Positions 2,975-49,380 of a DNA stretch of 64,000 nt are shown here, one piece after another. Below the pieces are notes generated by a model, which was not told where the DNA came from, made no database searches, and worked only from the letters and a program-made list of their open reading frames with translations. A program made the position numbers and the translations under genes. Source of the DNA: Aeromicrobium sp. (lineage in GTDB: Bacteria > Actinomycetota > Actinomycetes > Propionibacteriales > Nocardioidaceae); the NCBI GenBank assembly GCA_025965435.1, contig JAOPWZ010000020.1, forward strand, positions 960 to 64,959. The letters run 5' to 3'. Numbering within the stretch: the first letter of the stretch is position 1; each line of letters starts with the position of its first letter.

Positions 2975-3758
2975 CCTTGCCCTCCTTCGTCGTCTCCTCG
3001 GAGGTCTTCGCGGGCGACTGCTCGATCACCGTCTCGGACTCGGCACGTGAGGTGTCGGCCTGCTCGGCCGCGCCCTTCTTGGTGTCGGCGACGGCGTCGG
3101 GCTCGGGGTGCGTCTCGTCGACCGACGGTGCCCGCCAGCCGCGCTCGGCGGCGATCTCCAGGCCCGCGAGCGACGGACCGGCAGCCGCCGGACCCTCGTC
3201 CGCGCGACCGTCCTCGAAGCCCGCGAGCACCCGCTCGGCCTCGCGCCAGGAGGTGATCGTCGCCCCGCGGGTCGCCTGCACGGTCTCGCCGGCGCGAAGC
3301 TTGTCGACGACCTCGATCGCCGACTCGGGGGTCTGCTGGTCGAAGAACTCCCAGTTGACCGTCATGACCGGGGCGAAGTCGCACGCGGCGTTGCACTCGA
3401 TGTGCTCGAGGGTGACCTTGCCGTCCTCGGTGGTCTCGTCGTTGCCCACGTCGAGGTGGCCCTTGAGCCGCTCGAAGATCAGGTCGCCGCCCATCACGGC
3501 GCACAGCGTGTTGGTGCAGATGCCGACATGGTGCTCGCCCATGGGGCGGCGCTTGTACATCGTGTAGAACGTCGCGACGCCCGACACCTCGGCGGCACTG
3601 ATGCCCAGGATCTGCGCGCAGACCTCGATGCCCTCGTTGGTGACACTGCCCTCGGCCGACTGGACGAGGTGCAGCATCGGCAGCAGCGCGCTGCGCGGCT
3701 GCGGGTACCGACCCGCCAGCTCCACAAGCTCAGCCTTCGTAACATCAGAAAGCGTCAT
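2967..3758 (-). CDS. nuoE: NADH-quinone oxidoreductase subunit E
   Basis: VATFYTMY, CTNTLC and ECNAACD 2Fe-2S motifs; start moved to ATG 3758 (MTLSDVTK). Confidence 0.96.
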   Translation of the reverse strand: MTLSDVTKAELVELAGRYPQPRSALLPMLHLVQSAEGSVTNEGIEVCAQILGISAAEVSGVATFYTMYKRRPMGEHHVGICTNTLCAVMGGDLIFERLKGHLDVGNDETTEDGKVTLEHIECNAACDFAPVMTVNWEFFDQQTPESAIEVVDKLRAGETVQATRGATITSWREAERVLAGFEDGRADEGPAAAGPSLAGLEIAAERGWRAPSVDETHPEPDAVADTKKGAAEQADTSRAESETVIEQSPAKTSEETTKEGKDD

Positions 3759-3817
3759 CGAACACCCCACCGTCGAAAGTAACCATGGTCCGAGCGAGCG
3801 AAGCGAGCAAGACTCAT
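3755..3817 (-). other. 20-aa bridging mini-ORF between nuoD and nuoE
   Basis: [20 protein letters not shown]; ATGA overlaps at both ends; TCATCGA at both borders. Confidence 0.6.
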
Positions 3818-5142
3818 CGATCCACACCCCCCATGACGGGATCGAGACTCGCAACCGCGACGATGACGTCCGAGAGCATCCCGCCCTCGCTCATGACCGA
3901 GGTGGCCTGCAGGTTGACGAAGGACGGATCGCGGAAGTGGGCGCGGTACGGGCGGGTGCCGCCGTCGGACACCAGGTGGCAGTCGATCTCGCCGCGCGGC
4001 GCCTCGATCGAGGCGAAGGCCTGGCCGGCCGGGACCCGGAAGCCCTCGGTCACGATCTTGAAGTGGTGGATCAACGCCTCCATCGACTCACCCATGATGT
4101 GCTTGATGTGCTCGGCGGAGTTGCCCTGACCATCGGCGCCGACGCTGAGCTGTGAGGGCCAGGCGATCTTCTTGTCGGCCACCATGACGGGCTGGCCGTC
4201 CATCTTCTCGAGCCGGTCGGTGGCCTGCTCGACGATCCTCAGGGACTGCCACATCTCGTCGAGCCGCACCCGGAAACGTCCGTAGGCGTCGGGCTCGTCG
4301 CGGGTGACGACGTCGAAGTCGTACGTCTCGTAGCCCCAGTAGGGCTGCTTCTTGCGCAGGTCCCAGTCGTAGCCCGTCGCGCGCAGCACCGGGCCGGTGA
4401 GGCCGAGCGCCAGGCATCCGGCGAGCTCGAGGTGGCCGACACCTTTCAGGCGTCCCTTGAAGATCGGGTTGGCGTTGCACAGTGCGGCGTACTCGGGCAG
4501 CCGCTTCTTGAGCAGCGCGACGGTCGAGCGGAGCTGCTCGATCGCACCCTCGGGCAGGTCCTGCGCGACGCCGCCGGGGCGGAAGAAAGCGTGGTTCATC
4601 CGCAGGCCCGTGATCATCTCGAACAGGTCGAGGATCAGCTCGCGGTCACGGAAGCCGCAGGTCATGACCGTCAGCGCCCCGAGCTCCATGCCGCCGGTCG
4701 CGATGCAGATGAGGTGTGAGGAGATGCGGTTGAGCTCGAGCAGGAGCACGCGCATCGCCTGGGCCTTCTCGGGCGCCTCGATGCCGAGCAGCTTCTCGAC
4801 CGCCATGACGTAGGCGGCTTCGTTGGAGAACGGAGCCACGTAGTCCATGCGGGTGCAGAAGGTCACGCCCTGCGTCCAGGTGCGGTACTCCATGTTCTTC
4901 TCGATGCCGGTGTGCAGGTAGCCGACGCCGGCGCGCGCATCGCGGACGGTCTCGCCGTCGATCTCGAGGACGAGGCGGAGCACGCCGTGCGTCGACGGGT
5001 GCTGCGGGCCCATGTTGATGACCAGGTGGTCGCCCTCGACCGCGGAGGCGTCGATCGTGTCCCAGTCCTGACCGGTGACGGTGAAGACCGGTCCCTCGCG
5101 GGAGTCGGTCGTGCTCGCGTACGGGTCGTTGATGGTGCTCAC
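3814..5142 (-). CDS. nuoD: NADH-quinone oxidoreductase subunit D
   Basis: [25 protein letters not shown]-terminal DPVMGGVDR; GTG 5142 overlaps the nuoC stop. Confidence 0.97.
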
Positions 5143-5888
5143 GAGTAGCTCCTCCACTCGTCCGGTGGCGGCACGGTTCCACCCTTGTACTCGACGGGGA
5201 TGCCGCCGAGGGGATAATCCTTGCGCTGCGGGTGGCCTGGCCAGTCGTCCGGCATCAGGACGCGGGTCAGTGCGGGGTGGCCGTCGAAGATGATCCCGAA
5301 CATGTCCCAGGTCTCCCGCTCCTGCCAGTCCGCCGTCGGGTAGATCGAGACGACGCTGGGGAGGTGCGGATCACCGTCGGGGGTCGCGACCTCGAGGCGG
5401 ATCCGGCGGTTGTGGGTCATCGAGAGCAGGTGATAGGCCACGTGCAGCTCGCGGCCGGTCTCGTGCGGGAAGTGGACCCCGCTGACGCTCGAGCAGAACT
5501 CGAAGCGGAGCACCGGGTCGTTGCGCAGGTGCGTCACGGTCTCCAGCAGCAGCTGACGGCGGATGTAGAACGTGATCTCGCCACGGTCGACGACGACCTT
5601 CTCGATGGCGTCGCCCAGCCCCGGGCCGGCGGCCAGCCGGTCGGCGACCTCGTCGTACCAACCACCGAACGGCCGCTGGCTGGCGCCGGGCATCATGACG
5701 GGCCGGGTCAGGCCACCGAAGCCACTGGTGTCGCCCGTGCCGGGGGCGCCGAAGGCACCTTCACGGATCTCGACGACCTCGAGCTGCGTCGTGTCCGAAC
5801 GGAGCAGCTCGGACCGGGTCTCGTGCGAGGCGTCCTGGGTGCGGGTGCCCGCGTCGCGAGCGTCCCGGTTGCCCTTTTCATCCGTCAT
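5139..5888 (-). CDS. nuoC: NADH-quinone oxidoreductase subunit C
   Basis: [16 protein letters not shown] and [10 protein letters not shown] motifs. Confidence 0.97.
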
Positions 5889-6439
5889 CGCATGAGGCCC
5901 TTCATGGCGGAGGTCGGCGTCGCGAGCAGCGCGACCTTCTCCTCGGCCTTGATCTCAGCGAGCCGGTGGGCGCCGAGCTTCTCGTGCTGGATCTGGTCGT
6001 GCAGCTTGAGGATCGCGTCGATCAGCATCTCCGGACGCGGCGGGCAGCCGGGGAGGTACATGTCGACGGGCACGATGTGGTCGACGCCCTGGACGATCGC
6101 GTAGTTGTTGAACATCCCGCCCGAGCTGGCGCAGACGCCCATCGCCAGGACGTACTTGGGGCCGGGCATCTGGTCGTAGATCTGGCGCAGGACGGGGGCC
6201 ATCTTGTTGCTCACCCGGCCGGCGACGATCATCAGGTCGGCCTGGCGCGGCGAGGGACGGAAGACCTCCATGCCGAAGCGGGACGAGTCGAACCGCGGGG
6301 CGCCGAACGTCATCATCTCGATCGCGCAGCAGGCCAGGCCGAAGGTCGCGGGCCAGAACGAGGCCTTGCGCATGTAGCCGGCGAGTCCTTCGACCGTCGA
6401 GAGCAGGACTCCCGAGGGCAGCTTCTCTTCAATTCCCAC
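5885..6439 (-). CDS. nuoB: NADH-quinone oxidoreductase subunit B
   Basis: [15 protein letters not shown] and PGCPPRPE motifs. Confidence 0.98.
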
Positions 6440-6472
6440 GGTGTACGTCTCCCATCGGGTCCAGCGCTGTGC

Positions 6473-6832
6473 TCAGTCCCATTCCAGGCCCCCACGCCGC
6501 CACACGTAGGCGTACGCGATGAACACCGTCAGCATGAAGATGAACATCTCGATCAGCCCGAACCAGCCGAGCGCGTCGAAGGCGATGGCGAACGGGTAGA
6601 GAAAGATGATCTCGATGTCGAAGACGATGAAGAGCATCGCGATGATGAAGTAGCGGATCGAGATCCTGCCGCCGCCGTCGGGCAGCGGGCTGGGCTCGAT
6701 GCCCGACTCGTAGCGGTCCATCTTGGCGCGGTTGTAGCGTCTCGGACCCGTGAACGGCGCGATGGTCACGGAGAACACCGCAAAGGCGGCCGCGAGCGCT
6801 CCCAGCACCAGGATCGGCGTGTAGACCGTCAC
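6473..6832 (-). CDS. nuoA: NADH-quinone oxidoreductase subunit A
   Basis: YESGIEP, FIVFDIEIIFLYP, GGLEWD; first gene of the nuo operon. Confidence 0.97.
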   Translation of the reverse strand: MTVYTPILVLGALAAAFAVFSVTIAPFTGPRRYNRAKMDRYESGIEPSPLPDGGGRISIRYFIIAMLFIVFDIEIIFLYPFAIAFDALGWFGLIEMFIFMLTVFIAYAYVWRRGGLEWD

Positions 6833-6884
6833 AGCACCTCCCGAGTCTTGTCCGACGAAGCGTGGAACCTGCGTGATCGTGCGC

Positions 6885-6902
6885 TTGTGAATTCGTTCAC
6901 AA
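6885..6902. promoter_or_regulatory. Rex operator upstream of nuoA
   Basis: TTGTGAATTCGTTCACAA is a perfect TTGTGAA-N4-TTCACAA. Confidence 0.9.
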
Positions 6903-7002
6903 CATGACCACGCTCACACCCTACGCCCGCCCGGGGTCGCTTGTAACTTAGGTCACACTAAGTGCCGGCGCCGCCCTGAGCGGCGCCTGCGGGACGTCAG
7001 GA

Positions 7003-7695
7003 TCAGGGCTTGACGGAGTGGTGCAGCGCCACGATGCCGGCCGACAGGTTGTGCCACTCGACCTTGCCCCAACCGGCCTCGACCATGCGCATCGCCAGAC
7101 CCTTCTGGTCGGGCCACGCGCGGATCGACTCGGCCAGGTAGACGTACGACTCGGGGTTGGACGAGACCGCGCGCGCCACCGGCGGAAGGGCGCGCATCAG
7201 GTAGTTGGTGTAGATCGCGTCGAACGGCGCCCACGTCGGCGTGCTGAACTCGCAGACCACGATGCGTCCGCCCGGCCGGGTGACCCGCAGCAGCTCACGC
7301 AGGCCCTCGATCGGATCGACGATGTTGCGCAGGCCGAAGGAGATCGTGACGGCGTCGAAGGTGTCGTCGCCGAAGGGCAGGAGCATCCCGTCGCCGGCCG
7401 TGAACGGCAGATCGGGCAGGGCTCGCTTGCCGACCTCGAGCATGCCGATCGAGAAGTCGCAGGGCACCACGGTGGCGCCGGCGTCGGCGAAGGGCTGGCT
7501 GGACGTGCCGGTGCCGGCGGCGAGGTCGAGGATGACCTCACCCGGCTGCGGGGCCACGAGGTCGACGACGCGCTTGCGCCAGCGCCGGTCCTGTCCGAGG
7601 GAGAGCACGTCATTCGTGAGGTCGTACCTCTCGGCGACCTTGTCGAACATCGACGCAACGTCGTGGGGCTGCTTGTCCAGACCGGCTCGGCTCAC
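7003..7695 (-). CDS. menG: Demethylmenaquinone methyltransferase (MenG/UbiE)
   Basis: [40 protein letters not shown]. Confidence 0.95.
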
Positions 7696-7728
7696 CGCCC
7701 CACCTTGCCACGAGTAGGCTCATCGATT

Positions 7729-13444: not shown

Positions 13445-13526
13445 GACTCGATCGTGCGCGCATGAGGTAGGCCCCCACATCGGGCGAGATGCCTAGATGT
13501 GGGGGCCGGTTACCTCAGTTCGGGGC

Positions 13527-15044
13527 TCACTTCAGCGTCTGCTTCCCGCCGTGCAGCACCGTGATGAGCTGGGCGACCCGGCTGTCGGTCTTGGCGTCGC
13601 GCGTGAACGAGGTGAGCATCATGACGGGGCGGAACTTCTGCCGCGTGATCGCCTTGGCGTAGGTGAACTCCTTGAGCCCGTCCGGCCCGTGGATGCGCCC
13701 GAAGCCCGACTGGCCCACGCCGCCGAACGGAAGGGTCGGCACACCGGCGAACGCGATGACCGAGTTGACCGACGTCATGCCCGAGCGGATCTGCTGGGCG
13801 ATCTCCATGCCCCGCTTCTTGGAGAACACCGCTCCGGCCAGACCGTACGAGGTGCCGTTGGTCAGCTTGACGGCCTCCTCCATGCTCCTGACCGGGTTGA
13901 CCGCCAGCGTGGGACCGAACGTCTCCTCGGTCATCTCGGTGGAGGTCTCGGGCACGTGGGTCAGGATCGTGGGCTGCACGAAGCGCTCCCCCACGGCGTC
14001 GGACCCGCCGAGCGCCACGTGGGCGCCCTTCGCGATGGCGTCGTCGATGTGGCTCCGGATGACGTCGATCTGCGACGGCATCGTGATCGGGCCGATCTTG
14101 GCACCCGCGTCGGCGCCGGCCCGAAGCCCCTCCGCCTGCTGCAGGATCTCGGTCATGAACGAGTCGAAGACGTTCTCGTGCACGTAGACGCGCTCGGTGC
14201 CGATGCAGGTCTGGCCGGCGTTCGACATGCCGCCCCACAGCGCGGCCTCGGCGGCCTTGGCGATGTCGGCGTCCTCGTCGACGATCAGCGAGTCCTTGCC
14301 GCCGGCCTCGATGATGACGGGCGTGAGGTTCTCGGCGCACGCGGCCATGACCTTCTTGCCGGTCCGCCCCGAGCCGGTGAACGCCAGCTTGTCGACGTCG
14401 GCGGTGCACAGCGCGTTGCCGGTCTCACCCAGACCTGTGACGACCTGCAGCACCGGACGTCCGTGGACGACCTCGGTGAATGTGTCGGCGAGCCACTGGC
14501 CCACGCCGGGCGTGTACTCGCTGGGCTTGAACACGACGGTGTTGCCGGCGGCCAGCGCGTAGGCGATCGAGCCCATCGGCGTGAACACCGGGTAGTTCCA
14601 CGGGCCGATGACGCCGACGACGCCCAGCGGCCGGTACTCCACGGTCGACGCCTGGTTCGCCATGAGCAGCCCCGACGAGACCTTGTGCGGGCCGAGCACC
14701 TTCTTGGCGTGCTTGGCCGCCCACGCGATGTGGTCGATGGCCAGGACGATCTCGAGCTGCGCGTCGCCGTGCGGCTTGCCGGTCTCGCGGTGCGAGAGGT
14801 GGGCGAGCTGCGCGATGCGCCGCGTGATGACGCTGCGCCACGTCAGGAGGTACTCGCCGCGCTCGGCGAAGCTCAGCGCGCCCCACCATCCGGCCGCCTC
14901 GCGGGAGCGGGCCACGGCCGCGTCGACCCCGGCCCGGTCGACGACGGGGTGGGTGCCGACGAGATCGCCCGAGGCCGGGTCGAGCGAGTCGAAGGTCTTG
15001 ACCGGCGCGTCCGTGCCGGTGGTCGGGTCGAGCGTGGCGGTCAT
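13527..15044 (-). CDS. Aldehyde dehydrogenase
   Basis: PWNYP, FTGS, EAGGKD, NAGQTC, EETFGP, PFGGVGQSGFGR. Confidence 0.95.
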   Translation of the reverse strand: MTATLDPTTGTDAPVKTFDSLDPASGDLVGTHPVVDRAGVDAAVARSREAAGWWGALSFAERGEYLLTWRSVITRRIAQLAHLSHRETGKPHGDAQLEIVLAIDHIAWAAKHAKKVLGPHKVSSGLLMANQASTVEYRPLGVVGVIGPWNYPVFTPMGSIAYALAAGNTVVFKPSEYTPGVGQWLADTFTEVVHGRPVLQVVTGLGETGNALCTADVDKLAFTGSGRTGKKVMAACAENLTPVIIEAGGKDSLIVDEDADIAKAAEAALWGGMSNAGQTCIGTERVYVHENVFDSFMTEILQQAEGLRAGADAGAKIGPITMPSQIDVIRSHIDDAIAKGAHVALGGSDAVGERFVQPTILTHVPETSTEMTEETFGPTLAVNPVRSMEEAVKLTNGTSYGLAGAVFSKKRGMEIAQQIRSGMTSVNSVIAFAGVPTLPFGGVGQSGFGRIHGPDGLKEFTYAKAITRQKFRPVMMLTSFTRDAKTDSRVAQLITVLHGGKQTLK

Positions 15045-15106
15045 GCGGGGTCCCCGCCTTTCTGTGGAAGGAGCTTGCGACTGGAGCAGGAAGGTGGGGT
15101 GCTCAT
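15041..15106 (-). other. 21-aa bridging mini-ORF in a hairpin-forming intergenic unit
   Basis: MSTPPSCSSRKLLPQKGGDPA*; ATGA overlaps with the GMC stop and the ALDH start. Confidence 0.65.
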
Positions 15107-24805: not shown

Positions 24806-25864
24806 TCAGTCGCCCCAGCGGAACAGCCGGCTCGCGATCGCCGTCACCACGACCGCGAAGCCCAGCAGGACGGCCATCGGGACGAGCGCCGACGACGGCC
24901 CCTCCCCGCGGACCATGGTGTCGAGCATCCCGTCGTTGAGGTGCTTGAGCGGCAGGACCTTGCTGATCGCCGTCACGTAGCCGGGCGCACCGTCGAGCGG
25001 GAAGAACGACCCGGACAGGAAGGCCATCGGCAGCACCACGAAGTTCGAGATGCCGACGGCCGCCTCCTCACTCTTGGCCACGGCCCCGGCCAGCAGGCCG
25101 ATCGCCATGAACGCGAGGGTCCCGCACACGAGCAGCGGGATGATCATGGGCCACGAGCCCGTGAGCCTGAGGCCGAACAGGGCGATGCCGACCCCCAGGA
25201 AGATCGTCGCCTGCACGAGGGCGATCGCGATCGAGACGGCGACCCTGGCCAGCACGACGGAACGGGTCGGGATCGGCGCCAGCCGCAGGCGCCGCAGCAA
25301 CCCGTTCTTGCGCCACACCACGAGGTTCGTGGCAGCGCCGAAGGTCGCGCCGGAGGCGATGGCCCAGCCCATCAGGCCGGGCGTGTAGTACTGGATCGAC
25401 TCGAGCGAGTCGTCCTCGACCTGGTCGGTCGTGAGGCTGAACCGGGGCGGCTGGCCCGTCGCAGCGATGTTGGCCGACTGCACGATGGCCTGGAAGGTGC
25501 CCTGCACCGTCGCCGCCTTGACCTGGTCGGCCCGCGAGTAGCGGACGACGAGCTGGTCGCCGCGCTGGGTGATCATCGCGTCGGCGTCGCCCTTGCGGAC
25601 CTGCTCGAGAGCGTCCTTCTCGTCGGACGACGTGGTGATCTCCAGGCTGTCCTTGAAGTAGGCCGCCGCCTCCTTCGGGATGTCGTCGAGCACCGCGACC
25701 GGGCCCACCTGGATGATCTCCGCCTTCGAGACGCCCTGGTTGGTGAAGATGCCGCCGAACAGGACGAGGAACATCAGCGGGAAGATCACGGCGAAGAAGA
25801 ACGCCATCCTGTCGCGGAAGAACCCCTTGAGCATGGCCCGGGCGAGGGCCCGGAACGCGGTCAC
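24806..25864 (-). CDS. ABC-2 type exporter permease
   Basis: FFRDRMAFFF, LRRLRLAP, FLSGSFFP; multiple TM helices. Confidence 0.92.
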   Translation of the reverse strand: MTAFRALARAMLKGFFRDRMAFFFAVIFPLMFLVLFGGIFTNQGVSKAEIIQVGPVAVLDDIPKEAAAYFKDSLEITTSSDEKDALEQVRKGDADAMITQRGDQLVVRYSRADQVKAATVQGTFQAIVQSANIAATGQPPRFSLTTDQVEDDSLESIQYYTPGLMGWAIASGATFGAATNLVVWRKNGLLRRLRLAPIPTRSVVLARVAVSIAIALVQATIFLGVGIALFGLRLTGSWPMIIPLLVCGTLAFMAIGLLAGAVAKSEEAAVGISNFVVLPMAFLSGSFFPLDGAPGYVTAISKVLPLKHLNDGMLDTMVRGEGPSSALVPMAVLLGFAVVVTAIASRLFRWGD

Positions 25865-25950
25865 TCGGGGCCCCCGCGGAAGCGTGAGCGGACGTCGGCA
25901 AGTGCTGGCGCGAGCACCGTGCAGCGAGTGGTTCCGTGGGGTGAGGTCAT
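25861..25950 (-). other. 29-aa bridging mini-ORF in a hairpin-forming intergenic unit
   Basis: MTSPHGTTRCTVLAPALADVRSRFRGGPE*; ATGA overlap with the ATPase stop and GTGA overlap with the permease start. Confidence 0.65.
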
Positions 25951-28141: not shown

Positions 28142-29077
28142 TTATTTGGCGTACGAGTGCATCCCGCCGACCCACAGGTTGACGCCGACGAAGTTGAAGA
28201 CGAAGGTCGCGAAGCCGACCAGGGCGAGGATCGCGGCGGCCTTGCCCTTCCACCCGGCGGTCGCGCGGGCGTGCAGGTAGCCGGCGTAGACGACCCAGGT
28301 GATGAACGCCCAGACCTCCTTGGGGTCCCAGCCCCAGTAGCGGCCCCACGCGTACTGCGCCCAGATCGGGCCGGCGATGAGGGCCGCGAACGTCCAGATC
28401 GGGAACGCGAAGGCGTGCACGCGGTAGGCGACCTGGTCGATCTTGGCCGAGGCGGGGATGCGCCACAGGAAGCCGACCCGCTTGTCCTCGGGGGTGTTGC
28501 GCTCGGCGCGCGACTTGATCAGGTAGAGCACCGACGCGGCGGCACCGATGAAGAACGCGGATCCGGAGATGATCGCGCCGAAGACGTGGATGACGAGCCA
28601 GTACGAGTGCAGGGCGGGGACGAGTGGACCGGCGGGGACGTAGACCATCGCGGAGGCGCCCAGCACGACCGTGCCGAAGGCGGTGATGATGGGGCCGACC
28701 CAGTCGATCTCCCACACCCGCACCAGGGCGAGGTACACCAGCAGCGCGGCCACCGTCGCGGCGCAGCCGAACTCGTACATGTTGCCCCACGGGGCCCGCT
28801 CGGCGGCCAGACCACGCGTCACGACGCCCACGAGCAGGACGATCGTCGCCAGTGTCGTCAGCGACAGGCCGATGCCGCCGGCCATGTTGCTGCGCTCGAC
28901 CGGGACGGACGCCTGCGGGAGCTCGTCCGCGGAACCGGCGGTGACCCGTTCGCGCTCGGGCGCCACGTTGCGGGCGAAGCCCCACTGGGCGACGTACGCG
29001 ACGAAGGCCAGCGCGAGGATGCCCGTCGCGGACGCGACGGCGTAGTTGGAGACCTGCGCCAGGTTCTCGAGCGTCAT
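28142..29077 (-). CDS. ccsB: Cytochrome c biogenesis protein (system II, CcsA/ResC type)
   Basis: PWGNMYEF, LHSYWLVIH, WGRYWGWDPKE WWD domain, HSYA. Confidence 0.95.
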   Translation of the reverse strand: MTLENLAQVSNYAVASATGILALAFVAYVAQWGFARNVAPERERVTAGSADELPQASVPVERSNMAGGIGLSLTTLATIVLLVGVVTRGLAAERAPWGNMYEFGCAATVAALLVYLALVRVWEIDWVGPIITAFGTVVLGASAMVYVPAGPLVPALHSYWLVIHVFGAIISGSAFFIGAAASVLYLIKSRAERNTPEDKRVGFLWRIPASAKIDQVAYRVHAFAFPIWTFAALIAGPIWAQYAWGRYWGWDPKEVWAFITWVVYAGYLHARATAGWKGKAAAILALVGFATFVFNFVGVNLWVGGMHSYAK

Positions 29078-30639
29078 GTCGTTGCCTTCTCTTCGGTCTC
29101 ACCGAGCGCGTCCTTGAACCGCTCGAGGAAGTCGTCCAGGTCGGCCGGCAGGTCGTCCCGGGGCACGCGGTCCAGCACGGCGACGTCCACCACGGTACGC
29201 GAGCCGTCCTGACGGGCACGGATCCAGGTCCTGCGCGGCTTGATCGTCAGCGAGGTCATGAGCCCGATGAGTCCGGCGATGATGCCGAACAGCGGCACCT
29301 TGACCAACGGTGCCGAGCCGATCTGGAAGCGCGCGAACTGCCGCAGCTCGGTGAACTCGATCGACCCGCCGTCGGGGAGGTCGGCCGCCATGCCGGGCTG
29401 CAGGCTGACGCGGAAGGCCTTGGCGCCGTCCTGGTACTGCTCCATCTTGGTCTTGTCCAGGATGAAGACCGACTGGCCGGTCCCCTCGTCGAGCCCGAGG
29501 TCGCCGCGCCAGACGTTGAGCCCGACGAGCGGGTTGGCGGCGGCGGGGTGGGCGGATGTCGACAGCTCCTTGCCGCCCTGGCTCACCGCCGTCGGCAGGA
29601 AGAAGCCCTGGAAGCCGAGCTGCTCGGGCTGGGCGTCGGGGACCTTGATGATGCCGTTGGACGTGTAGGTCGCGTCGGCGGGCAGGAAGGGGACGGCGTC
29701 GTTGTACACCACGTTGCCCTGCGCATCGGTGATCTTGAAGACCGGCGCATAGCCCTGACCGAGCAGGTAGACCGAGGTGCTGCCGATCGCGAGCGGATGG
29801 TTGACCGTGATGTCGAAGGGCTTGTCGTCCTCGCCCGGCGAGGCGGCATAGGTGCCCTTCGCGCGGAACTCGCGCGGGGCGCCGGCCTGCGGGCTCCCGA
29901 ACGGCTGGAACCGTGCGGTGACCTTGTCCAGGGTGAGGGCGAACGGCGGCAGGTCGTCGGTGTCGAACAACGTCCCGGAGCTGAACTCGTCGTACTGGGG
30001 CAGGGAGTTGGCGAATTGTCCTCCGCCGTCGGTCACGATGACGGAACCGCGATAGCCGAACAGTGTCCCGACCGCCACACCGATCAGCACCACGACGATG
30101 CTGATGTGGAAGACCAGGTTGCCAGCCTCACGTAGGAAGCCCTTCTCGGCGCTGACCTCGCGCACGCCCTCGCGGTCCGCGACGTCGATCCTGGACCGCC
30201 CGAGAGCCTTGCGCGCGGCTGCCACGACGTCGTCCGGGGAGGCGTCGGTCTCGAACGAGGCGGACGCCGGGAGGCGGGAGAAGTTGCGCGGTGCCTTGGG
30301 CGGACGGGCGCGGGCGGCGCGGAGGTAGACGAACGAGCGGGGCAGGATGCAGCCGATCAGCGACACCATCAGCAGCAGGTAGACGGCGCTGAACCACGGC
30401 GAGCTGTAGACGCTGAAGAAGCCGAGGTCGTCCAGGATCGGCGCCGACTTCGGATGATCGAGGAAGTACGTCTCGACGGCCCGGGCATCGACACCGCGCT
30501 GCGGCACCAGCGAGCCCGGCACCGCGGCGATCGCCAGCAGCAGCAGGAGCATCAGCGCGGTGCGCATCGACGTCAGCTGGCGCCAGAACCACCGCGTGAG
30601 CTCGCGACGTCCCAGCTCGCTGACCGCATTCTCACTCAT
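29074..30639 (-). CDS. resB: Cytochrome c biogenesis protein ResB
   Basis: WRQLTSMRTAL, PGSLVPQ, YSSPWF, GNLVFH, VNHPL. Confidence 0.93.
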   Translation of the reverse strand: MSENAVSELGRRELTRWFWRQLTSMRTALMLLLLLAIAAVPGSLVPQRGVDARAVETYFLDHPKSAPILDDLGFFSVYSSPWFSAVYLLLMVSLIGCILPRSFVYLRAARARPPKAPRNFSRLPASASFETDASPDDVVAAARKALGRSRIDVADREGVREVSAEKGFLREAGNLVFHISIVVVLIGVAVGTLFGYRGSVIVTDGGGQFANSLPQYDEFSSGTLFDTDDLPPFALTLDKVTARFQPFGSPQAGAPREFRAKGTYAASPGEDDKPFDITVNHPLAIGSTSVYLLGQGYAPVFKITDAQGNVVYNDAVPFLPADATYTSNGIIKVPDAQPEQLGFQGFFLPTAVSQGGKELSTSAHPAAANPLVGLNVWRGDLGLDEGTGQSVFILDKTKMEQYQDGAKAFRVSLQPGMAADLPDGGSIEFTELRQFARFQIGSAPLVKVPLFGIIAGLIGLMTSLTIKPRRTWIRARQDGSRTVVDVAVLDRVPRDDLPADLDDFLERFKDALGETEEKATT

Positions 30640-30659
30640 GAAGCCCTCTGCTCACTCAT
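30636..30659 (-). other. 7-aa bridging mini-ORF between ccdA and resB
   Basis: MSEQRAS*; ATGA at both ends; CTCACTCAT duplicated at 30631 and 30651. Confidence 0.55.
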
Positions 30660-31408
30660 ACCGGCGGCTCGAAGCCCGAGACCCACGTCTGCATGTCGCC
30701 GACCAGGCTGTCCCACAGCCCTGTCACCAGCAGGACGCCGACCACGATGAGCAGCGAGCCGCCCACGATCGAGACCGCCCGTTGGTGCCGGCGGAACCAC
30801 GAGACGGCGTGCATGAACCGGCCGAACCCGAGGGCCGCCAGCACGAACGGGATGCCGAGGCCCAGGCAGTAGACGAAGGTCAGAAAGGCCCCGCGCGCGG
30901 CGGAGGGGTCGTCGGTCGCGAACGAGAGCGTCAGCACGGCCGACAGGGTCGGACCGATGCAGGGCACCCAGCCGAGGCCGAAGAAGACCCCCAGCACGGG
31001 GGCGATCGCGAGCCCGACCGCGGGCACGGCGTGCACCCGCACCTCGCGCTGCATGAACGGGACGAATCCGATGAAGACCAGCCCGAGGATGATCACCAGG
31101 ATGCCGGTCACGATCGAGAGGGTGTCCTGGTAGCGCTGCAGCTTCAGCCCGGCCGAGCCGAACAGGGCGCCCCCGAGCACGAACACCGTCGAGAAGCCGA
31201 GCACGAACAGCAACGCCCCGGCGAGCAGGCGTCCCCGGCGGGCGGACTCCAGGTCCTGGGCCGCGACCCCCGAGACGTACGAGAGGTAGCCCGGCAGCAG
31301 CGGCAGGACGCACGGGGAGAAGAACGACACCAGACCGGCGATGGCTGCCACCGGCACGGCGAGCAGGAGATTGCCCGAGTAGACGGTGTCCTGGAACCAG
31401 TCCGTCAC
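30656..31408 (-). CDS. ccdA: Cytochrome c biogenesis protein CcdA
   Basis: SFFSPCVLPL and GWVPCIGP motifs; GTG overlaps the TlpA stop. Confidence 0.93.
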   Translation of the reverse strand: MTDWFQDTVYSGNLLLAVPVAAIAGLVSFFSPCVLPLLPGYLSYVSGVAAQDLESARRGRLLAGALLFVLGFSTVFVLGGALFGSAGLKLQRYQDTLSIVTGILVIILGLVFIGFVPFMQREVRVHAVPAVGLAIAPVLGVFFGLGWVPCIGPTLSAVLTLSFATDDPSAARGAFLTFVYCLGLGIPFVLAALGFGRFMHAVSWFRRHQRAVSIVGGSLLIVVGVLLVTGLWDSLVGDMQTWVSGFEPPV

Positions 31409-34029: not shown

Positions 34030-34056
34030 CGTAACCTCAGGACCCCTGTCTCGTTG
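34030..34056 (+). promoter_or_regulatory. BldN-type ECF sigma promoter CGTAAC-N16-CGTTG
   Basis: CGTAAC at 34030-34035 and CGTTG at 34052-34056, upstream of the lytic transglycosylase gene. Confidence 0.6.
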
Positions 34057-34163: not shown

Positions 34164-35384
34164 ATGGGAGCTCGACAGCTCACGCGTTGGCAGAAGGCCA
34201 GCGCCCTGGTGCCGATGGCCTTGCTGGTCGGCGCGTGGGGCGCCGCACTCGGCAACTCCGGCCTGGCCACCGCCTCTGACGGCATCTCCGACTCCGACAT
34301 TCCCGATGTGCCCGCCACGGCCTTCGAGCAGCCCGCCAGCGTCCAGCAGTCACCCAGCGGCGTCGACCCGAAGGCCGGTGCCGCCGGAACGGTGTCCACG
34401 CTGTCGACCAACGGCATCCCGACGTCGGCCCTGTACGCCTACCGCCGCGCCGAGACCCTGCTCGGCAAGGCCGACGAGGGCTGTCACCTGCCGTGGACGA
34501 TCGTCGCCGCGATCGGCCGGGTCGAGTCCAACCACGGCCGCACCAACGGCAACGCGCTCGACGCCGACGGCATCGCGCAGCCGGGCATCTACGGTGTGCC
34601 GCTCGACGGCAAGGACGGCCGGGCCCGGATCGCCGACACCGACAGCGGGACGCTGGACAAGAACTCGGTCCTCGACGTCGCGGTCGGCCCGATGCAATTC
34701 ATCCCCGGCACCTGGCAGACCGTCGGCGTCGACGCCGACAACGACGGCAGCAAGAACCCGCAGAGCATCAACGACGCGGCGACATCGGCCGGCATCTACC
34801 TGTGCGCCGGTGAGGGTGATCTGTCCAGCCCGTCCGATGCGGCCGTTGCGCTCAAGCGCTACAACAACTCCGACGCCTACGTCGACCTGGTCCTGAAGAT
34901 CGCCGCCGCCTACGCCAACGGCGACTTCACGCAGTCGCCCAACGGTGTCTCGACGGCGCCCGTCCTGACCTCCTCGTCGAACGACCAGACCCTGACGCCC
35001 AAGCAGCGCGCCAAGGCCGACAAGGCTCAGCGCGACGCCGAGAGGAAGCCCGTCACCGGCAAGCCCAAGGCCGGCGCACCCGGTGGCGGAGGTGGAGCGG
35101 GCACCGCTCCCGGTTCGAGCCCGGGTGCCGGTGGTTCCAGCGGCGACGGTGGCGGCGGCACCCCCGACGTCCCGAAGCCCACGGTTCCCAAGACTCCCGG
35201 GACGCTGGGCGGCGGAACTCAGAAGCTCGTCGAGGACACCCCCCTGGCGCCGCTCGCGCCCGTCACGAAGCCCGTCACTGGGCTGCTGTCCGGGGTCGAG
35301 GCCAACCTGCAGTGCCTGGTCAAGTACCCGTTCGGCCTGCCGAAGGTCGAGTTCGACAAGTGCGTGTACGACCTGACTCACTGA
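34164..35384 (+). CDS. Secreted lytic transglycosylase (SLT_2-like)
   Basis: N-terminal hydrophobic segment, AAIGRVESNHG, GPMQFIPGTW, RYNNSDAYV; Gly/Pro-rich tail. Confidence 0.9.
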   Translation: MGARQLTRWQKASALVPMALLVGAWGAALGNSGLATASDGISDSDIPDVPATAFEQPASVQQSPSGVDPKAGAAGTVSTLSTNGIPTSALYAYRRAETLLGKADEGCHLPWTIVAAIGRVESNHGRTNGNALDADGIAQPGIYGVPLDGKDGRARIADTDSGTLDKNSVLDVAVGPMQFIPGTWQTVGVDADNDGSKNPQSINDAATSAGIYLCAGEGDLSSPSDAAVALKRYNNSDAYVDLVLKIAAAYANGDFTQSPNGVSTAPVLTSSSNDQTLTPKQRAKADKAQRDAERKPVTGKPKAGAPGGGGGAGTAPGSSPGAGGSSGDGGGGTPDVPKPTVPKTPGTLGGGTQKLVEDTPLAPLAPVTKPVTGLLSGVEANLQCLVKYPFGLPKVEFDKCVYDLTH

Positions 35385-44501: not shown

Positions 44502-44503
44502 AA

Positions 44504-44659: not shown

Positions 44660-44926
44660 TCAAGCCCGACGCCGCCCCAGCGCCGTCCGCAACCGCACCG
44701 GGTCGACCCGCCAGAAGTCGTGCTGCGCGCCGTCGACGAAGGTCACCGGCACCTGCTCGGTGAATCGCGCCCGCAGGTCGGGGTCGCCGTCGATGTCGAC
44801 CCGAGCCCAGGTGTCGCCGGTGTCGGCGCAGACCTGCGCCACCTGCTCCTCGGCCGCGGCACACAGGTGGCAGCCCTCACGGGTGTAGACGACGACCCGC
44901 GCGGAGTCCGCGTGCGGGATGCTCAT
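44660..44926 (-). CDS. Glutaredoxin-like protein (DUF836 type)
   Basis: YTREGCHLC, EQVPVTFVDG, FWRVD. Confidence 0.9.
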   Translation of the reverse strand: MSIPHADSARVVVYTREGCHLCAAAEEQVAQVCADTGDTWARVDIDGDPDLRARFTEQVPVTFVDGAQHDFWRVDPVRLRTALGRRRA

Positions 44927-46491
44927 GCGTCCAACCCCAGCGTCTCGCTGCGTCCCAGCGCCCGCAGCCGCCCCTTGGCGACCTTGCCGGTCGCGGAGTG
45001 CGGCAGCCCGGTCACGACGATCGTGCGGCGCGGCTGCTTGAAGCGCGCCAGCCGCGTGCGGCAATGGGCATCGATCGCCTCCCGCAGCGTCGTCTCGTCG
45101 GGTGCGTCCCTGGCCGGCACCACGAAGGCGACCACGGCTTCCCCCGTCTGCTCGTCGGGCAGCCCGACCACGGCCACCTGACCGACACCGTCGACCTCGG
45201 CGATGATGTCCTCGACCTCGAAGGGGTAGACGTTGAAGCCCGAGACGATCACCAGCTCGCGGAGCCGGTCGACCAGCGTCAGGTCGCCGTCGGCGTCGAG
45301 GTAGCCGATGTCACCGGTGGGGTACCAGCCGTCGGCGTCGGGGCCGTCGAGCCCGTCGGGCCAGTAGCCGGAGAAGAGGTTGTCGCCCCGCACCCAGATC
45401 TCAGCCGGATCGCCCGGAGCGGCATCGGCCCCGTTGGGCTCGACGATCCGCAGCTCGATGCCGGGCAGGGCGCGGCCGACCGAGCCGTGCTTGATGCGGT
45501 GGTCGGTGTCGGGCGGTGAACCGTGCGTCGTCGTGATGACGGGGGCCGTCTCGGTGAGGCCGTAGCCCTGCTGGATCTGGTGGCCGGACGACTCCTGGAA
45601 CGCCTCGGCCAGATCGGTGTCGAGGGCCGACGCGCCCGACAGGAGCGTCGTGACGTGCGCCAGCTGGTCACGCAGGTCGTCGCGTCCCGCCCAGGCCGCG
45701 ATGACGGGAGGAGCCACCGGCAGGTTGGTGATGCGCTCGGCGGCGATCAGGTCCAGCAAGCCGGAGGGGTCGAAACGATCGACGAGCACGACCGTCGCGC
45801 CCTGGCGAACGGCCTGGCCGAGCACGCAGTTGAGCCCGTAGATGTGGAACAGGGGCAGCAGCCCCAAGCAGATGTCGTCCGGCGTCATGGCCGGGGGCTC
45901 GAGGCGGGCGATCTGCTCGGTGTTGGCGATCAGCGCGCGGTGGGTGAGCATCGCGCCGCGGGGGCGGCCGCTCGTGCCGGACGTGTAGAGGATGACGGCC
46001 AGCGCCTCGGCGTCGGGCGGTGACACCGGGGCGGCGCCCGACGCATCGGCCAGGAACCGGTCGAAGGACGTCTCGTCGTCCTGCGGCGCGGCACCGTCCA
46101 CGACGATGTCGATGCGATGGCCCTCGGTGACGGCCTCGCGCACCTGGTCGATGCCGGTCTCGTCGCACAAGACGACGCGGGCGAGCGAGTCGGTCAGCAT
46201 CCGCCCGATCTCCCGGGTCGTGGACCGCGGGTTGACGGGGACGGCGACCATGCCGCCGCGCAGGATGCCGTAGTAGGCGATCGGCAGGTCGATGCGATTG
46301 GCCATGACGACGGCGACCCGCTGGCCGGCGACCAGGCCCCGGCCCGACAGCGCCCGCGCGATCGCGTCGGCCGATTCGTCGAGCTCACGCCACGTGATGT
46401 GGCGCCGATCAGGACGGTGCTCGAGGAGAGCCACGCCATCGGGATCATTCGCTGCGGCCGCTCGGAGGTACTCGCTGACATTGACTGTCAC
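44923..46491 (-). CDS. Long-chain fatty acid-CoA ligase / AMP-binding protein
   Basis: YTSGTSGRPRG, GYGLTET, TGDIG, SGFNVYP. Confidence 0.92.
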   Translation of the reverse strand: MTVNVSEYLRAAAANDPDGVALLEHRPDRRHITWRELDESADAIARALSGRGLVAGQRVAVVMANRIDLPIAYYGILRGGMVAVPVNPRSTTREIGRMLTDSLARVVLCDETGIDQVREAVTEGHRIDIVVDGAAPQDDETSFDRFLADASGAAPVSPPDAEALAVILYTSGTSGRPRGAMLTHRALIANTEQIARLEPPAMTPDDICLGLLPLFHIYGLNCVLGQAVRQGATVVLVDRFDPSGLLDLIAAERITNLPVAPPVIAAWAGRDDLRDQLAHVTTLLSGASALDTDLAEAFQESSGHQIQQGYGLTETAPVITTTHGSPPDTDHRIKHGSVGRALPGIELRIVEPNGADAAPGDPAEIWVRGDNLFSGYWPDGLDGPDADGWYPTGDIGYLDADGDLTLVDRLRELVIVSGFNVYPFEVEDIIAEVDGVGQVAVVGLPDEQTGEAVVAFVVPARDAPDETTLREAIDAHCRTRLARFKQPRRTIVVTGLPHSATGKVAKGRLRALGRSETLGLDA

Positions 46492-46543
46492 GCTCTGAGT
46501 CAACCACAGGCCCTGCACCCCCGAGGGGGTTAGGCTCGGTCCC

Positions 46544-47428
46544 ATGCCACGGGACGCAACACCCGATCGACATCGCAATCTGCAGGCACGGTCGGTCCTC
46601 GCCGGGCAGGCGTCCGCGGCCTCGGCGCAGATCGAGCAGGAGCTCTCGGCGGCTCCCGACCCCACGGCGGCGGCGTTCTTCGACGTCGACAACACGGTCA
46701 TGCAGGGCGCCTCGATCTTCCACCTGGCCCGCGGCCTCCACCGGCGCGACTTCTTCACGACCAGAGACCTGCTCAAGGCCACGTGGCAGCAGCTGTGGTT
46801 CCGGGTCGTCGGCAGCGAGGATGCCGACCACATCGCCAACGCGCGGGCCGTCGGGCTGGCCTTCATCGCCGGTCACACCGTCGCCGAGCTCGAGGACATC
46901 GGGGAGGAGATCTTCGACGAGCACATGGCCGCCAAGATCTGGCCCGGCACCCGGGCCCTCGCCCAGTGGCACCTCGATCGCGGTCACCGGGTGTGGCTCG
47001 TCACCGCCGCGCCGATCGAGATCGCCCAGGTCATCGCCCGACGCCTCGGCCTGACCGGCGCGCTCGGGACGGTCTCCGAGCACGTCGACGGCGTCTACAC
47101 CGGCCGGCTGGTCGGCGAGATGCTGCACGGCGAGAGCAAGGCCGCCGCAGTGCGCGAGATCGTCGCGCGGGAGGGCCTGGTGCTCGAGGAGTGCTACGCG
47201 TACTCCGACTCCAGCAACGACCTGCCGATGCTCTCGCTGGTGGGTCATCCGTGCGCCGTCAACCCCGACTACGCCCTGCGGGCCCACGCCAAGGCCCAAG
47301 GGTGGCGCGTGCGTGACTACCGCACCGGTCGCAAGGTGGCGCTCGTCGGCGGCAAGGGCGCCGTGGCCGCCCTGGCGACCGCCGGGACGTGGCACGTGAT
47401 GCGCCGAAGGATCAAGCAAAGCCGCTGA
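46544..47428 (+). CDS. HAD-IB family hydrolase (SerB1-like)
   Basis: FFDVDNT, LVTAAP, AYSDSSNDLPML, AVNPD. Confidence 0.92.
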   Translation: MPRDATPDRHRNLQARSVLAGQASAASAQIEQELSAAPDPTAAAFFDVDNTVMQGASIFHLARGLHRRDFFTTRDLLKATWQQLWFRVVGSEDADHIANARAVGLAFIAGHTVAELEDIGEEIFDEHMAAKIWPGTRALAQWHLDRGHRVWLVTAAPIEIAQVIARRLGLTGALGTVSEHVDGVYTGRLVGEMLHGESKAAAVREIVAREGLVLEECYAYSDSSNDLPMLSLVGHPCAVNPDYALRAHAKAQGWRVRDYRTGRKVALVGGKGAVAALATAGTWHVMRRRIKQSR

Positions 47429-47474
47429 CTCCTGCGCGGCCCGGGGGTACGATCGCAAGGATCAGGGAGGGCCT

Positions 47475-48176
47475 GTGAGATCACGGTGGGATTCGCTGCG
47501 CGGTGCGCTGGCACTTGCCCTGGCCACCCCTGACGACCGTTCCCTGCAGATCGCGCTCGCGCTGGCCGACTCCCCCGCCTACGCACCCTCCTCGGGCGGT
47601 CAGTCACCGCACGACGACCACGATCCCGCGGCCACCCGCCTGCGCGCCCTCGTCGACCTGGCGAAGCAGGGAGACGCCGAGGCCTTCGGTCAGCTCTACG
47701 ACCACTACGTCACCGGGGTGTTCCGCTTCATCTACTACCGCGTCGGCTCGCGGCAGCTCGCCGAGGACCTCACCAGCGAGACGTTCGTCCGCGGGCTGCG
47801 CGCCATCCAGCGGTTCAACTGGCAGGGCAAGGACTTCGGGGCCTGGCTGACGACGATCGCGCGCAACCTGGTCGCCGACCACTTCAAGTCCAGCCGCTCG
47901 CGGCTCGAGATCGTGACCGACACGATCCCCGAGGGCAGGACGCACGCGGGCAGCCCCGAGCAAGAGGTGCTCGCGCTCATCTCCAACGAGATGCTCTTCG
48001 ACGCCGTCAGGTCGCTGCCCCCCGAGCAGCGCGACTGCATCCTGATGCGTTTCATCCAGGGCCTCTCGATCGCCCAGACGGCGGCCGCTCTCGGCCGCAG
48101 CGAGGGCGCGATCAAGCAGCTCCAGCTGCGCGCCGTGCGCAGCCTGGCCAAGTCCGTGCCGGAAGATGCTCGATGA
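47475..48176 (+). CDS. ECF sigma factor, BldN-like
   Basis: GDAEAFGQLYDHY, AEDLTSETF, WQGKDFGAWLTTIARNL, EGAIKQLQ; N-terminal extension. Confidence 0.9.
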   Translation: MRSRWDSLRGALALALATPDDRSLQIALALADSPAYAPSSGGQSPHDDHDPAATRLRALVDLAKQGDAEAFGQLYDHYVTGVFRFIYYRVGSRQLAEDLTSETFVRGLRAIQRFNWQGKDFGAWLTTIARNLVADHFKSSRSRLEIVTDTIPEGRTHAGSPEQEVLALISNEMLFDAVRSLPPEQRDCILMRFIQGLSIAQTAAALGRSEGAIKQLQLRAVRSLAKSVPEDAR

Positions 48177-48211
48177 GCTCGCCCGCCTCGACGGTCCTCC
48201 CGTCGTCTCCA

Positions 48212-48239
48212 CGTAACCTCGACGGTTCGGGACTCGTTG
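48212..48239 (+). promoter_or_regulatory. BldN-type promoter CGTAAC-N17-CGTTG upstream of the anti-sigma gene
   Basis: CGTAAC at 48212-48217 and CGTTG at 48235-48239. Confidence 0.6.
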
Positions 48240-48282
48240 TCCCTGACAGCACCCGAGCACGTCCAGCAGTCAGGAACCCATC

Positions 48283-49380
48283 ATGATCGGCCGTCGCTCC
48301 CACGACGATGCGCAGTCCTTCGAGGAGGCCTGCAACGGCGGCGCGCCCCGCAACGAGCACATCGCCAACCTGATCCGCGTCGCAGAGGAGCTGTGCGCCG
48401 ACGCCGCGGCCGTCCAGCCGTCGACGCAGTTCCGCAACTCGCTACGCGCCCAGCTGATGACGGAGGCCTCCTCCGTCCTGGTCGCGATGCCGGCGACGGC
48501 ACGCCCGGCGGTCACCCCGCCGGCAGCCAGACGGCCCGTCCGTCGCCGCGTCGCCATCCTGACGGCGGCCGTCGTGGCCTCGGCCGGGACCGTGGGCCTC
48601 GTCTCGTCCAGCGCATCGGCCCTGCCCGGCGAGATGCTCTATCCCGTCAAGCGCACCGTCGAGACGGTCGAGCTCCAGCTGCACCGTGACGACGCCTCCC
48701 GTGGCGCCTTCCAGCTGACCCGGGCCTCCGAGCGGCTCTCCGAGGCGCGGCAGCTCAGCGCCGACGGACGCTCGACCGATCTCATCGCCGACACGCTCGA
48801 CGACTTCTCCACCGCGGCGGCCGACGGCTCGCGCAACCTGTTCAGCGACTATGCGGCGCGCGGTGCGGAGAAGTCGATCCGCCAGGTCAACGACTTCGCG
48901 GCCATGTCCAGCCTTGATCTCTCCAAGCTCTCGGCCCGGCTGCCCGACAGCGCCGCCGCATCGTTCGCCGCGGCGACCGACGCCGTGACCGACCTGGCCT
49001 CGGAGGCGTCGACGCTGTGCGACAGCTGCACGCCCGCCGACGTGCGGGTGCTCGCGTCCACGGTCGAGCAGCCGAAGGCCTCCAACCCGCCGGCCGCCGA
49101 CCCGACCAAGACCTCACCGCGTCCCGCCGACAAGCCCACGACACCGGTGGCCAAGACGCCTGCACCGGCCACCAGCCCGCCGACCTCGCCGCTCAAGCCG
49201 CCCGCCACCCCCACCACGCCCGCGGTGCCGGCCGTGCCGTCACCCACCCCGAGACCGACCGAGGTCCCGCCGCTGCTGTCGGGTCTCACCGATCCGCTGC
49301 TGGGCGGACTGCTCGGCGACGAGGAGCAGGAGGGGCTGGTGCCCGGTCTGGTGGACGGGCTGCTCGGTGGTCCGCAGTAG
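48283..49380 (+). CDS. Probable anti-sigma factor (DUF5667, RsbN-like)
   Basis: FRNSLRAQL, one TM helix, ALPGEMLYPVKR, Pro-rich tail; follows the ECF sigma. Confidence 0.8.
   Translation: MIGRRSHDDAQSFEEACNGGAPRNEHIANLIRVAEELCADAAAVQPSTQFRNSLRAQLMTEASSVLVAMPATARPAVTPPAARRPVRRRVAILTAAVVASAGTVGLVSSSASALPGEMLYPVKRTVETVELQLHRDDASRGAFQLTRASERLSEARQLSADGRSTDLIADTLDDFSTAAADGSRNLFSDYAARGAEKSIRQVNDFAAMSSLDLSKLSARLPDSAAASFAAATDAVTDLASEASTLCDSCTPADVRVLASTVEQPKASNPPAADPTKTSPRPADKPTTPVAKTPAPATSPPTSPLKPPATPTTPAVPAVPSPTPRPTEVPPLLSGLTDPLLGGLLGDEEQEGLVPGLVDGLLGGPQ

Follow-up and report, generated by a model that had tools for sequence, protein, structure and literature searches.

We examined a 64,000-nucleotide stretch of Aeromicrobium sp. 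DNA (bases 960-64959 of contig C144; hereafter the window, numbered from its first base), in which the gaps at five co-directional gene junctions are each spanned exactly by a short open reading frame (ORF). The source assembly (G000) comprises 2.15 Mb in 148 contigs, with 70% GC, and is 59% complete. A preliminary description made from the sequence alone had pointed these mini-ORFs out, and all five are present as described there: at each site, read directly in the sequence, the mini-ORF starts on an ATG whose last two bases are also the first two of the upstream gene's TGA, stays open, and ends with a TGA lying within the RTGA (ATGA or GTGA) start of the downstream gene. An RTGA tetranucleotide is shared by a stop and a start at both ends of all five mini-ORFs, and both ends are conserved in relatives (the junction comparison drew on 40 relatives, 24 of the same genus).

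Four of the bridges lie on the minus strand. They join nuoD (3814-5142) to nuoE (2967-3758) through a 20-aa ORF at 3755-3817; a GMC/choline dehydrogenase-type oxidoreductase gene to an aldehyde dehydrogenase (ALDH) gene through 21 aa at 15041-15106; an ABC ATPase gene to an ABC-2 permease gene through 29 aa at 25861-25950, ending on the GTGA of the permease start (GTG at 25864); and a ccdA-like gene (30656-31408) to resB (29074-30639) through 7 aa at 30636-30659. The fifth, on the plus strand (48173-48286, 37 aa), covers the entire 106-nt spacer between a probable BldN-family sigma factor gene and a presumed anti-sigma factor gene. Families were assigned with NCBIfam profiles, which matched nuoD, nuoE, the GMC oxidoreductase, the ALDH, the ABC ATPase and ABC-2 permease, a DsbD/CcdA-like membrane protein and an extracytoplasmic function (ECF) sigma factor; solved relatives were sought by PDB sequence search. 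At all five junctions the downstream start is backed by an N-terminus that aligns with conserved N-termini in relatives.

Six truly gapped co-directional junctions in the window have an RTG over the upstream stop and five of them bridge, so the earlier count of five in six holds with our own gene calls. The exception is the ALDH stop, where a GTG over the stop opens a 6-aa ORF (13510-13530, minus strand) that ends on TAA and is followed by a 312-nt gap. Three further RTGA stops in the window are ordinary direct overlaps. The five peptides show no relation to one another and the frame is kept in relatives, in agreement with the earlier suggestion that frame rather than product is constrained. 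No Rfam family reached its gathering score anywhere in the window. We also considered that a bridge might be needed to melt a hairpin hiding the downstream Shine-Dalgarno (SD) sequence, and dropped this because folding of the five inserts, flanks included, is no more stable than in dinucleotide shuffles (z = +1.0, +0.05, +0.5, +1.2 and -0.25).

The sigma to anti-sigma junction

The sigma factor gene (47475-48176, plus strand) matches the BldN-family profile TIGR02952 (E = 3e-54) at 183.5 bits, a score just short of the curated cutoff of 206; among solved structures, BldN of Streptomyces venezuelae (6DXO chain A, E = 1e-55) is by far its best relative. The 365-aa product of the gene downstream (48283-49380, plus strand) is presumed to be an RsbN-like anti-sigma factor from its position, the promoter motif ahead of it and the literature on RsbN divergence; it has no NCBIfam or PDB sequence match, as expected for a fast-evolving RsbN, a protein whose divergence is reported to be exceptional (PMC4255298). 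[quoted passage not shown] Here a BldN-type motif, GTAAC-N17-CGTT, lies inside the mini-ORF (48213-48238, plus strand; GTAAC is read in frame as CGT AAC) with a spacing that is invariant in all Aeromicrobium loci, and the anti-sigma gene thus has a predicted sigma-dependent promoter of its own in the spacer. The locus resembles the S. venezuelae module in that a probable BldN-family ECF sigma factor gene is followed by a presumed, fast-evolving anti-sigma gene with its own predicted BldN-type promoter in the spacer, but no relay ORF is described there (PMC6101532, PMC4255298). A second match in the window, GTAAC-N16-CGTT at 34031-34055 (plus strand), lies upstream of a plus-strand gene at about 34164-35384; two matches compare with 0.11 expected, and the motif makes this site a likely further BldN-type promoter.

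The bridge is exact in 17 of 19 Aeromicrobium loci, though the spacers have diverged; the two exceptions end the sigma gene with TAA. Among the 17 bridging loci there are 10 gap lengths between 82 and 145 nt, all of them 1 mod 3, and the mini-ORF peptides measure 29 to 50 aa. Eight distinct ATG-to-GTAAC distances occur, and another eight from CGTT to the end, and all 16 are 1 mod 3. The spacer needs at least 14 length changes, every one a multiple of three, which if independent would have a chance of about (1/3)^14. The end points are kept as well: the last sigma codon is CGA in 14 of the 17 loci (CGG in 2, GCG in 1), against 91% GC at third positions in the long, high-GC3 ORFs of the source assembly on which our gene caller was trained, and the second anti-sigma codon is one of eight different codons (for I, T, K, R, N or M) that all begin with A. 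In most Aeromicrobium loci an SD-like GAGGA stands 6 nt ahead of the mini-ORF ATG. Only the RN encoded by GTAAC, the V-V encoded by CGTT and the SD-encoded C-terminal residues recur in the peptide, which is therefore not kept beyond the overlapping DNA signals, as a conserved small protein would be. A frameshifted C-terminal extension of the sigma factor was rejected because the base before the TGA always makes ATG, GTG or TTG.

We found no empty site, that is, no direct overlap of the two genes, in about 100 loci; the spacer is an old, promoter-holding one and not an insertion. In a wider survey of 80 BldN-family loci from Actinomycetes (some possibly from the same species as our numbered relatives; the ORF to be reached had to be at least 90 aa), an exact bridge is present in 32 of 50 loci with ATG, GTG or TTG over the stop versus 5 of 30 without. 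Bridging groups include Nocardioidaceae, Solicola, Actinopolymorphaceae, Kitasatospora, Yinghuangia, Streptacidiphilus and Sporichthya. Several of the frames that do not bridge stop on the TAA inside GTAAC. The loci lacking a stop-overlapping start are mostly from Streptomyces, where most bldN genes (L297-L337) end in CGC TGA and usually have no open bridging frame; the Kitasatospora loci (L312, L314, L315 and L325) have GTGA or ATGA and bridges of 90-105 codons over 265-310 nt. Judged by this conservation, the sigma to anti-sigma junction is the strongest case of the five.

Inserts and empty sites at the other four junctions

The preliminary description had proposed that small elements enter RTGA overlaps and persist when their length and frame preserve coupling. 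At four of the five junctions (nuoD>nuoE, GMC>ALDH, the ABC pair and ccdA>resB) most relatives have empty sites, namely direct ATGA or GTGA overlaps. These alignments support reading the four gaps as insertions into ancestral RTGA overlaps; the first half of the proposal thus stands for these four, and fails for the sigma spacer; of the inserts, the one at nuoD>nuoE alone has a match to a dispersed repeat.

Four congeners have a direct ATGA, GTGA or TTGA overlap between nuoD and nuoE with the NuoE N-terminus unchanged. Repeat-derived inserts occur at this junction in five genomes (gaps of 55, 124, 156, 145 and 193 nt), and four of the five bridge exactly, with 20, 43, 50 and 66 codons; the 156-nt insert, in G006, is out of phase. 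The window's insert, 59 nt in full, carries the motif CTCGCTTCGCTCGG, and an RFAR-like motif derived from the repeat (RFAR, RFAP, SFAR or RCAR) is found in all five insert peptides, the out-of-phase frame of G006 included. Across L001-L030, many congeners start NuoE at the overlapping ATG with a non-conserved, in-frame N-terminal extension, the conserved core beginning 8-89 nt past the nuoD stop; judging from these alignments, one kind of insertion seems able to end either in an in-frame extension or in a bridge.

At GMC>ALDH the direct overlap AAGGAGTCCCGATGACC is found in 14 relatives. The window's insert (62 nt in full, a 58-nt gap) is flanked on both sides by CCGCATGA, and inserts also occur in G006 (58 nt) and G008 (88 nt), all three with an RTGA bridge; the complete congener G017 has an unlike 63-nt spacer after a TAG stop, and no bridge. 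The ABC junction is a direct RTGA overlap, with an identical permease N-terminus (MTAF), in 11 relatives. The ccdA-like gene and resB overlap by 4 or 1 nt in 17 relatives, and seven of the nine relatives with a gapped RTGA junction bridge it, through 2 to 36 codons of unrelated sequence (a repeat element in G022). The window's insert at this junction is 20 nt long with ATGAGTGAG at both ends; a simple tandem duplication was rejected as its source, only 9 of the 20 nt being repeated. By these counts (4 of 5 at nuoD>nuoE, 3 of 3 at GMC>ALDH, 7 of 9 at ccdA>resB), independent inserts at one junction appear usually, though not always, to keep the bridge, and the second half of the earlier proposal is borne out to that extent.

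At all four insert junctions the upstream stop still has the legacy SD and start codon (at the GMC stop, for instance, AAGGAG-N6-ATG). Each of the four inserts lies between direct repeats of 5-9 nt, of which (A)TGA is a part. Over all bridges of the source assembly the flank identity is 2.55, against 1.39 in a permutation null (0 of 2,000 permutations reach it); the congener G017 gives a weak signal (p = 0.07). The GMC and ABC inserts have ends in common (ATGA..CACCCCAC at the 5′ end and GCGGGG[AG]CCCCG.RTGA at the 3′ end), with an imperfect inverted repeat near the ends of each, while their cores differ. A search of the source assembly and G017 for these ends (CACCCCAC ... GGGG[AG]CCCCG) gave one further match, in coding-like sequence and not at a junction; a second element family defined by them is unproven.

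Genome-wide counts and a proposed ribosome relay

Genes and starts were called in the source assembly and in G017, of which the first 2.4 Mb were counted, with a simple home-made caller (a periodic dicodon model with SD and start-codon weights) that overlooked the GTG start of the ABC-2 permease. A gapped junction was taken as one with a gap of 1-200 nt, and the frame was counted from one base before the upstream stop; a stop-overlapping ATG, GTG or TTG whose frame was open and matched that of the downstream gene was scored as a direct overlap. Where ATG or GTG overlaps a TGA stop, exact bridges span 32 of 122 gapped junctions in the source assembly and 42 of 135 in G017 (26-31%). The corresponding figures are 51 of 392 and 62 of 466 (about 13%) for CTGA, in which the base before the stop makes no start, and 16 of 207 and 16 of 213 (about 8%) for TAA or TAG. 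The pooled odds ratio for exact bridging is 2.7 against CTGA (p = 2e-8) and 4.9 against TAA/TAG (p = 6e-13), so bridges exceed both internal controls.

We repeated the count with only the two phases that are out of frame with the downstream gene, so that overlap correction cannot bias it (220 junctions with a real start, 593 with CTGA and 304 with TAA or TAG). In these three groups, respectively, the frame ends before the downstream start in 46%, 38% and 33%, exactly on it in 34%, 19% and 11%, 2-30 nt inside the downstream gene in 7%, 7% and 9%, and more than 30 nt inside it in 13%, 36% and 48%. Invading frames of the last kind are depleted where there is a real start (odds ratio 0.22, p = 8e-16), and exact docking is enriched (odds ratio 2.6, p = 3e-8). 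The controls are exceeded and the invaders depleted; therefore, selection "sees" ORFs that begin on stop-overlapping start codons. The two phases are also unequal, phase 0 to phase 1 standing at 64:156 with a real start versus 449:448 in the controls.

Between the two genomes, eight bridges are common (six of the eight differ in length) and nine junctions switch between bridge and direct overlap. Indels that separate them are multiples of three in 6 of 8 cases for the bridges of the source assembly versus 67 of 164 for other gaps, a comparison of little power with a baseline inflated by shifts in start calls. CTGA junctions dock more often than TAA/TAG junctions (13% versus 8%), and with an RTGA downstream start they also favour phase 1; decayed bridges, starts slightly upstream in the same frame, or another cause may lie behind this.

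Stop-to-start mini-ORFs in this Aeromicrobium genome are real and kept by selection, and most likely, as far as sequence comparison can tell, they pass ribosomes across inserted or promoter-bearing spacers, mostly of unique sequence. We regard such a relay from a legacy start as the best explanation, and a probable one. In this high-GC actinobacterium, ATGA or GTGA overlaps would join most operon genes and let a ribosome that finishes one gene begin again on its neighbour. Where an insertion splits such a junction, or a promoter makes a spacer necessary, the legacy start codon would remain atop the upstream stop, often together with its SD, and stay in use. Ribosomes that finish the upstream gene, or that the legacy SD recruits, would initiate on this RTG, read through the spacer as far as the TGA of the downstream RTGA, and after terminating on it start anew. 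Selection would remove frames that run out of frame into the next gene and favour those ending on the TGA of the next RTGA; the peptide would be irrelevant, with only the frame and its end points counting. At the bldN-like>rsbN-like junction, the relay would tie anti-sigma output to sigma output on read-through transcripts from the sigma promoter, while transcripts from the internal promoter, presumably sigma-dependent, would lack the mini-ORF start, which lies upstream of them, and depend on the SD (AGGA) of the anti-sigma gene itself.

Several points weigh against this reading. All gene and start calls in the genome-wide counts come from our own simple caller, and the pooled p-values are overstated because the two genomes share ancestry. 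Openness is only weakly above that of shuffles (32 of 38 versus 25.0 +/- 2.6 in the source assembly, 42 of 56 versus 38.7 +/- 2.7 in G017), and if the control rates are taken as a guide, chance would supply about a third to a half of the genome-wide bridges. Non-invading phase-1 frames dock exactly at similar rates with a start (74 of 140) and without one (145 of 311), so that much of the genome-wide signal could be interference avoidance plus an unexplained phase bias. At every junction in the window the downstream gene has its own SD-like, G-rich motif in the 3′ end of the mini-ORF, so initiation free of any relay is possible. The ABC insert, found among the relatives in the source assembly only, is without comparative support. 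A search for RNA and ribosome-profiling runs that cover this DNA gave no usable run, the best RNA runs matching 4% of the sampled words.

Avoidance of interference by itself, in which the legacy start is used and out-of-frame ORFs are purged, no ribosome is handed on, and the RTGA ending is incidental (RTGA starts are many and TGA is the commonest stop), is an unlikely account. It is favoured by the strong depletion of invading frames, the like docking of non-invading phase-1 frames and the downstream SD-like motifs, and it explains much of the genome-wide table. It does not explain the strict conservation of frame and end points in the sigma spacer: any stop in the spacer would suffice, yet length changes on both sides of the promoter are all multiples of three, loci avoid the frame that would meet TAA within GTAAC, and eight different second codons of the anti-sigma gene all preserve the A that follows its ATG. 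Phase 1 is also enriched past what the removal of invaders predicts.

Repeat families, remaining alternatives and significance

The bridging might instead be a built-in design of mobile elements, selfish repeats with an ORF of their own that target start codons, and owe nothing to host selection. The nuo insert carries the 3′ part of a REP-like repeat (family A) of about 100-135 nt, with GC-rich palindromes (e.g., CCGTGCTTCGCACGG) and ending in ...CTCGCTCGGCCCATGGTTGCGTC. We found 26 copies, five in the source assembly (C14:258-393, C126:2017-2139, C71:30775-30890, C147:2426-2508 and C134:1172-1259, the last in a 1.6-kb stretch without a called gene) and 21 in bases 1-2400000 of G017. A second repeat, family B (about 78-87 nt; ATGAGCGAGCGCCAGCGAGCGAACCATGA ... 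GGAGGTG..GCATGA), occurs outside the window at C103 (5445-5528), C117 (54611-54697), C79 (5278-5445), C100 (14572-14655) and C25 (22129-22206), and it is also the element at ccdA>resB in G022 (L049). Five of these six copies stand at co-directional junctions in gene orientation, three of the five in the source assembly bridge exactly, and the C79 copy consists of two tandem units. Together with the flanking direct repeats, which exceed the permutation null in the source assembly, this speaks for element design. Against it, BLAST of the five inserts over the source assembly and 2.4 Mb of G017 gave further copies for the nuo insert only, and none for the GMC, ABC, ccdA and sigma sequences; family A lies in either orientation and mostly between convergent genes (14 of 26 copies); the sigma spacer has no empty site; and the flank-repeat signal is weak in G017. 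We consider this explanation distinctly unlikely.

The same evidence bears on the label "MIRU-like" given to the bridges in the preliminary description. According to a 2025 review (PMC12548453, citing Supply et al. 1997), mycobacterial interspersed repetitive units (MIRUs) appear to insert at start codons, with an internal ORF coupled at a -4 spacing. As portrayed there, they resemble our bridges in being short inserts at start codons in operons, with an ORF along the operon direction and 4-nt overlaps to both flanking genes, and the benefit proposed is insertion with little effect on downstream expression. All five bridges lie at co-directional junctions and have an ORF overlapping the stop before and the start after. 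MIRUs are, in contrast, a dispersed family of 40-100 bp repeats that are often tandem, whereas four of our five inserts are single-copy, no tandem units occur in the window, and the host is an Aeromicrobium (Propionibacteriales) and not a Mycobacterium. The sole repeat-derived insert comes from a REP-like family found mostly after convergent genes, and one bridge crosses an ancient promoter-bearing spacer and no insert at all. The label thus fits the mechanism, as predicted from sequence, and not family membership; no bridge can be filed as a MIRU, and family B, outside the window, appears to be the closest MIRU analogue in this genome.

Protection from polarity, in which the translated spacer covers the mRNA and suppresses Rho-dependent termination or decay, would bring a gain in transcription or RNA stability and not in reinitiation. 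The tight 1- and 4-nt overlaps of M. tuberculosis have been proposed to suppress Rho-dependent termination (10.1101/2022.06.01.494293), and selection on a frame through the whole spacer fits this equally well. We nevertheless hold it to be quite improbable, since it leaves unexplained both the exact ending of stop on start, although a stop a few codons short of it should give almost the same protection, and the bridges of 2 to 8 codons over gaps of 7-20 nt.

Chance, in a 70% GC genome with rare stops and many RTGA starts, and in a window picked post hoc, is a very improbable general account. Control frames without a start do bridge at 8-13%, interior shuffles leave 25 of 38 frames open, and the window, selected for its bridges, has 5 of the roughly 32 in the genome. 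It is contradicted by bridging at two to four times the rate of the internal controls in both genomes, the conservation in 17 of 19 loci over 10 spacer lengths, and the 32 of 50 versus 5 of 30 loci across Actinomycetes; chance may account for single cases such as the ABC bridge, seen only in the source assembly. That the mini-ORFs encode functional micropeptides is hardly credible: the frames are open, start codons are present and one is positionally conserved across the genus, yet the five peptides are mutually unrelated and the sigma spacer, at 29 to 50 aa, keeps only the residues forced by promoter and SD.

The principle of ribosome delivery and -4 coupling by short ORFs is already known (PMC12548453; 10.1101/2022.06.01.494293). 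A short ORF may serve solely to deliver a ribosome to a coupled gene (PMC12548453), and NUGA overlaps are abundant in M. tuberculosis, upstream ORFs (uORFs) included (10.1101/2022.06.01.494293). Such uORFs share with our bridges a short, non-conserved ORF and a 4-nt overlap with a real gene start, but they sit in 5′ leaders and start on their own, whereas the bridges are docked at both ends and would chain upstream to downstream translation. Simple ATGA or GTGA termination-reinitiation coupling uses the same tetranucleotide, which occurs twice per bridge, and relatives have the simple form at the same junctions; the relay as proposed differs in having two reinitiations in series, with 7 to at least 50 throw-away codons between them. 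Our literature search found no description of doubly docked relay ORFs built from unique sequence at multiple operon junctions in one genome outside the mycobacteria, no internal-control test showing selection on where stop-overlapping starts lead, and no description of a conserved relay ORF across the bldN>rsbN promoter spacer.

We further suggest, tentatively and with slightly less than even confidence, that high-GC Actinomycetes routinely use starts atop stops, that selection keeps doubly docked relay ORFs chaining genes across spacers, and that the bldN>rsbN relay ORF is old and widely conserved (Aeromicrobium, Nocardioidaceae, Kitasatospora, Sporichthya and others), fixing the sigma to anti-sigma ratio on read-through transcripts and apparently missing in most Streptomyces. 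That ribosomes initiate on the overlapping RTG and reinitiate at the far end is what we infer from the constraint on the frame, and the stoichiometric rationale is likewise our reading.

Discussions of translational coupling usually concern touching genes, and the relay idea has so far been proposed only for MIRUs. The contrast between junctions with and without a stop-overlapping start offers a cheap test for any genome, and bldN>rsbN a concrete system in which the sigma to anti-sigma ratio matters and the promoter-holding spacer cannot be deleted. If ribosomes are indeed relayed through throw-away ORFs, insertions into operons would be tolerated through a simple rule of frame and end points, many operon "intergenic" spacers would be translated, and the annotation of gapped junctions would be overlooking a functional layer.

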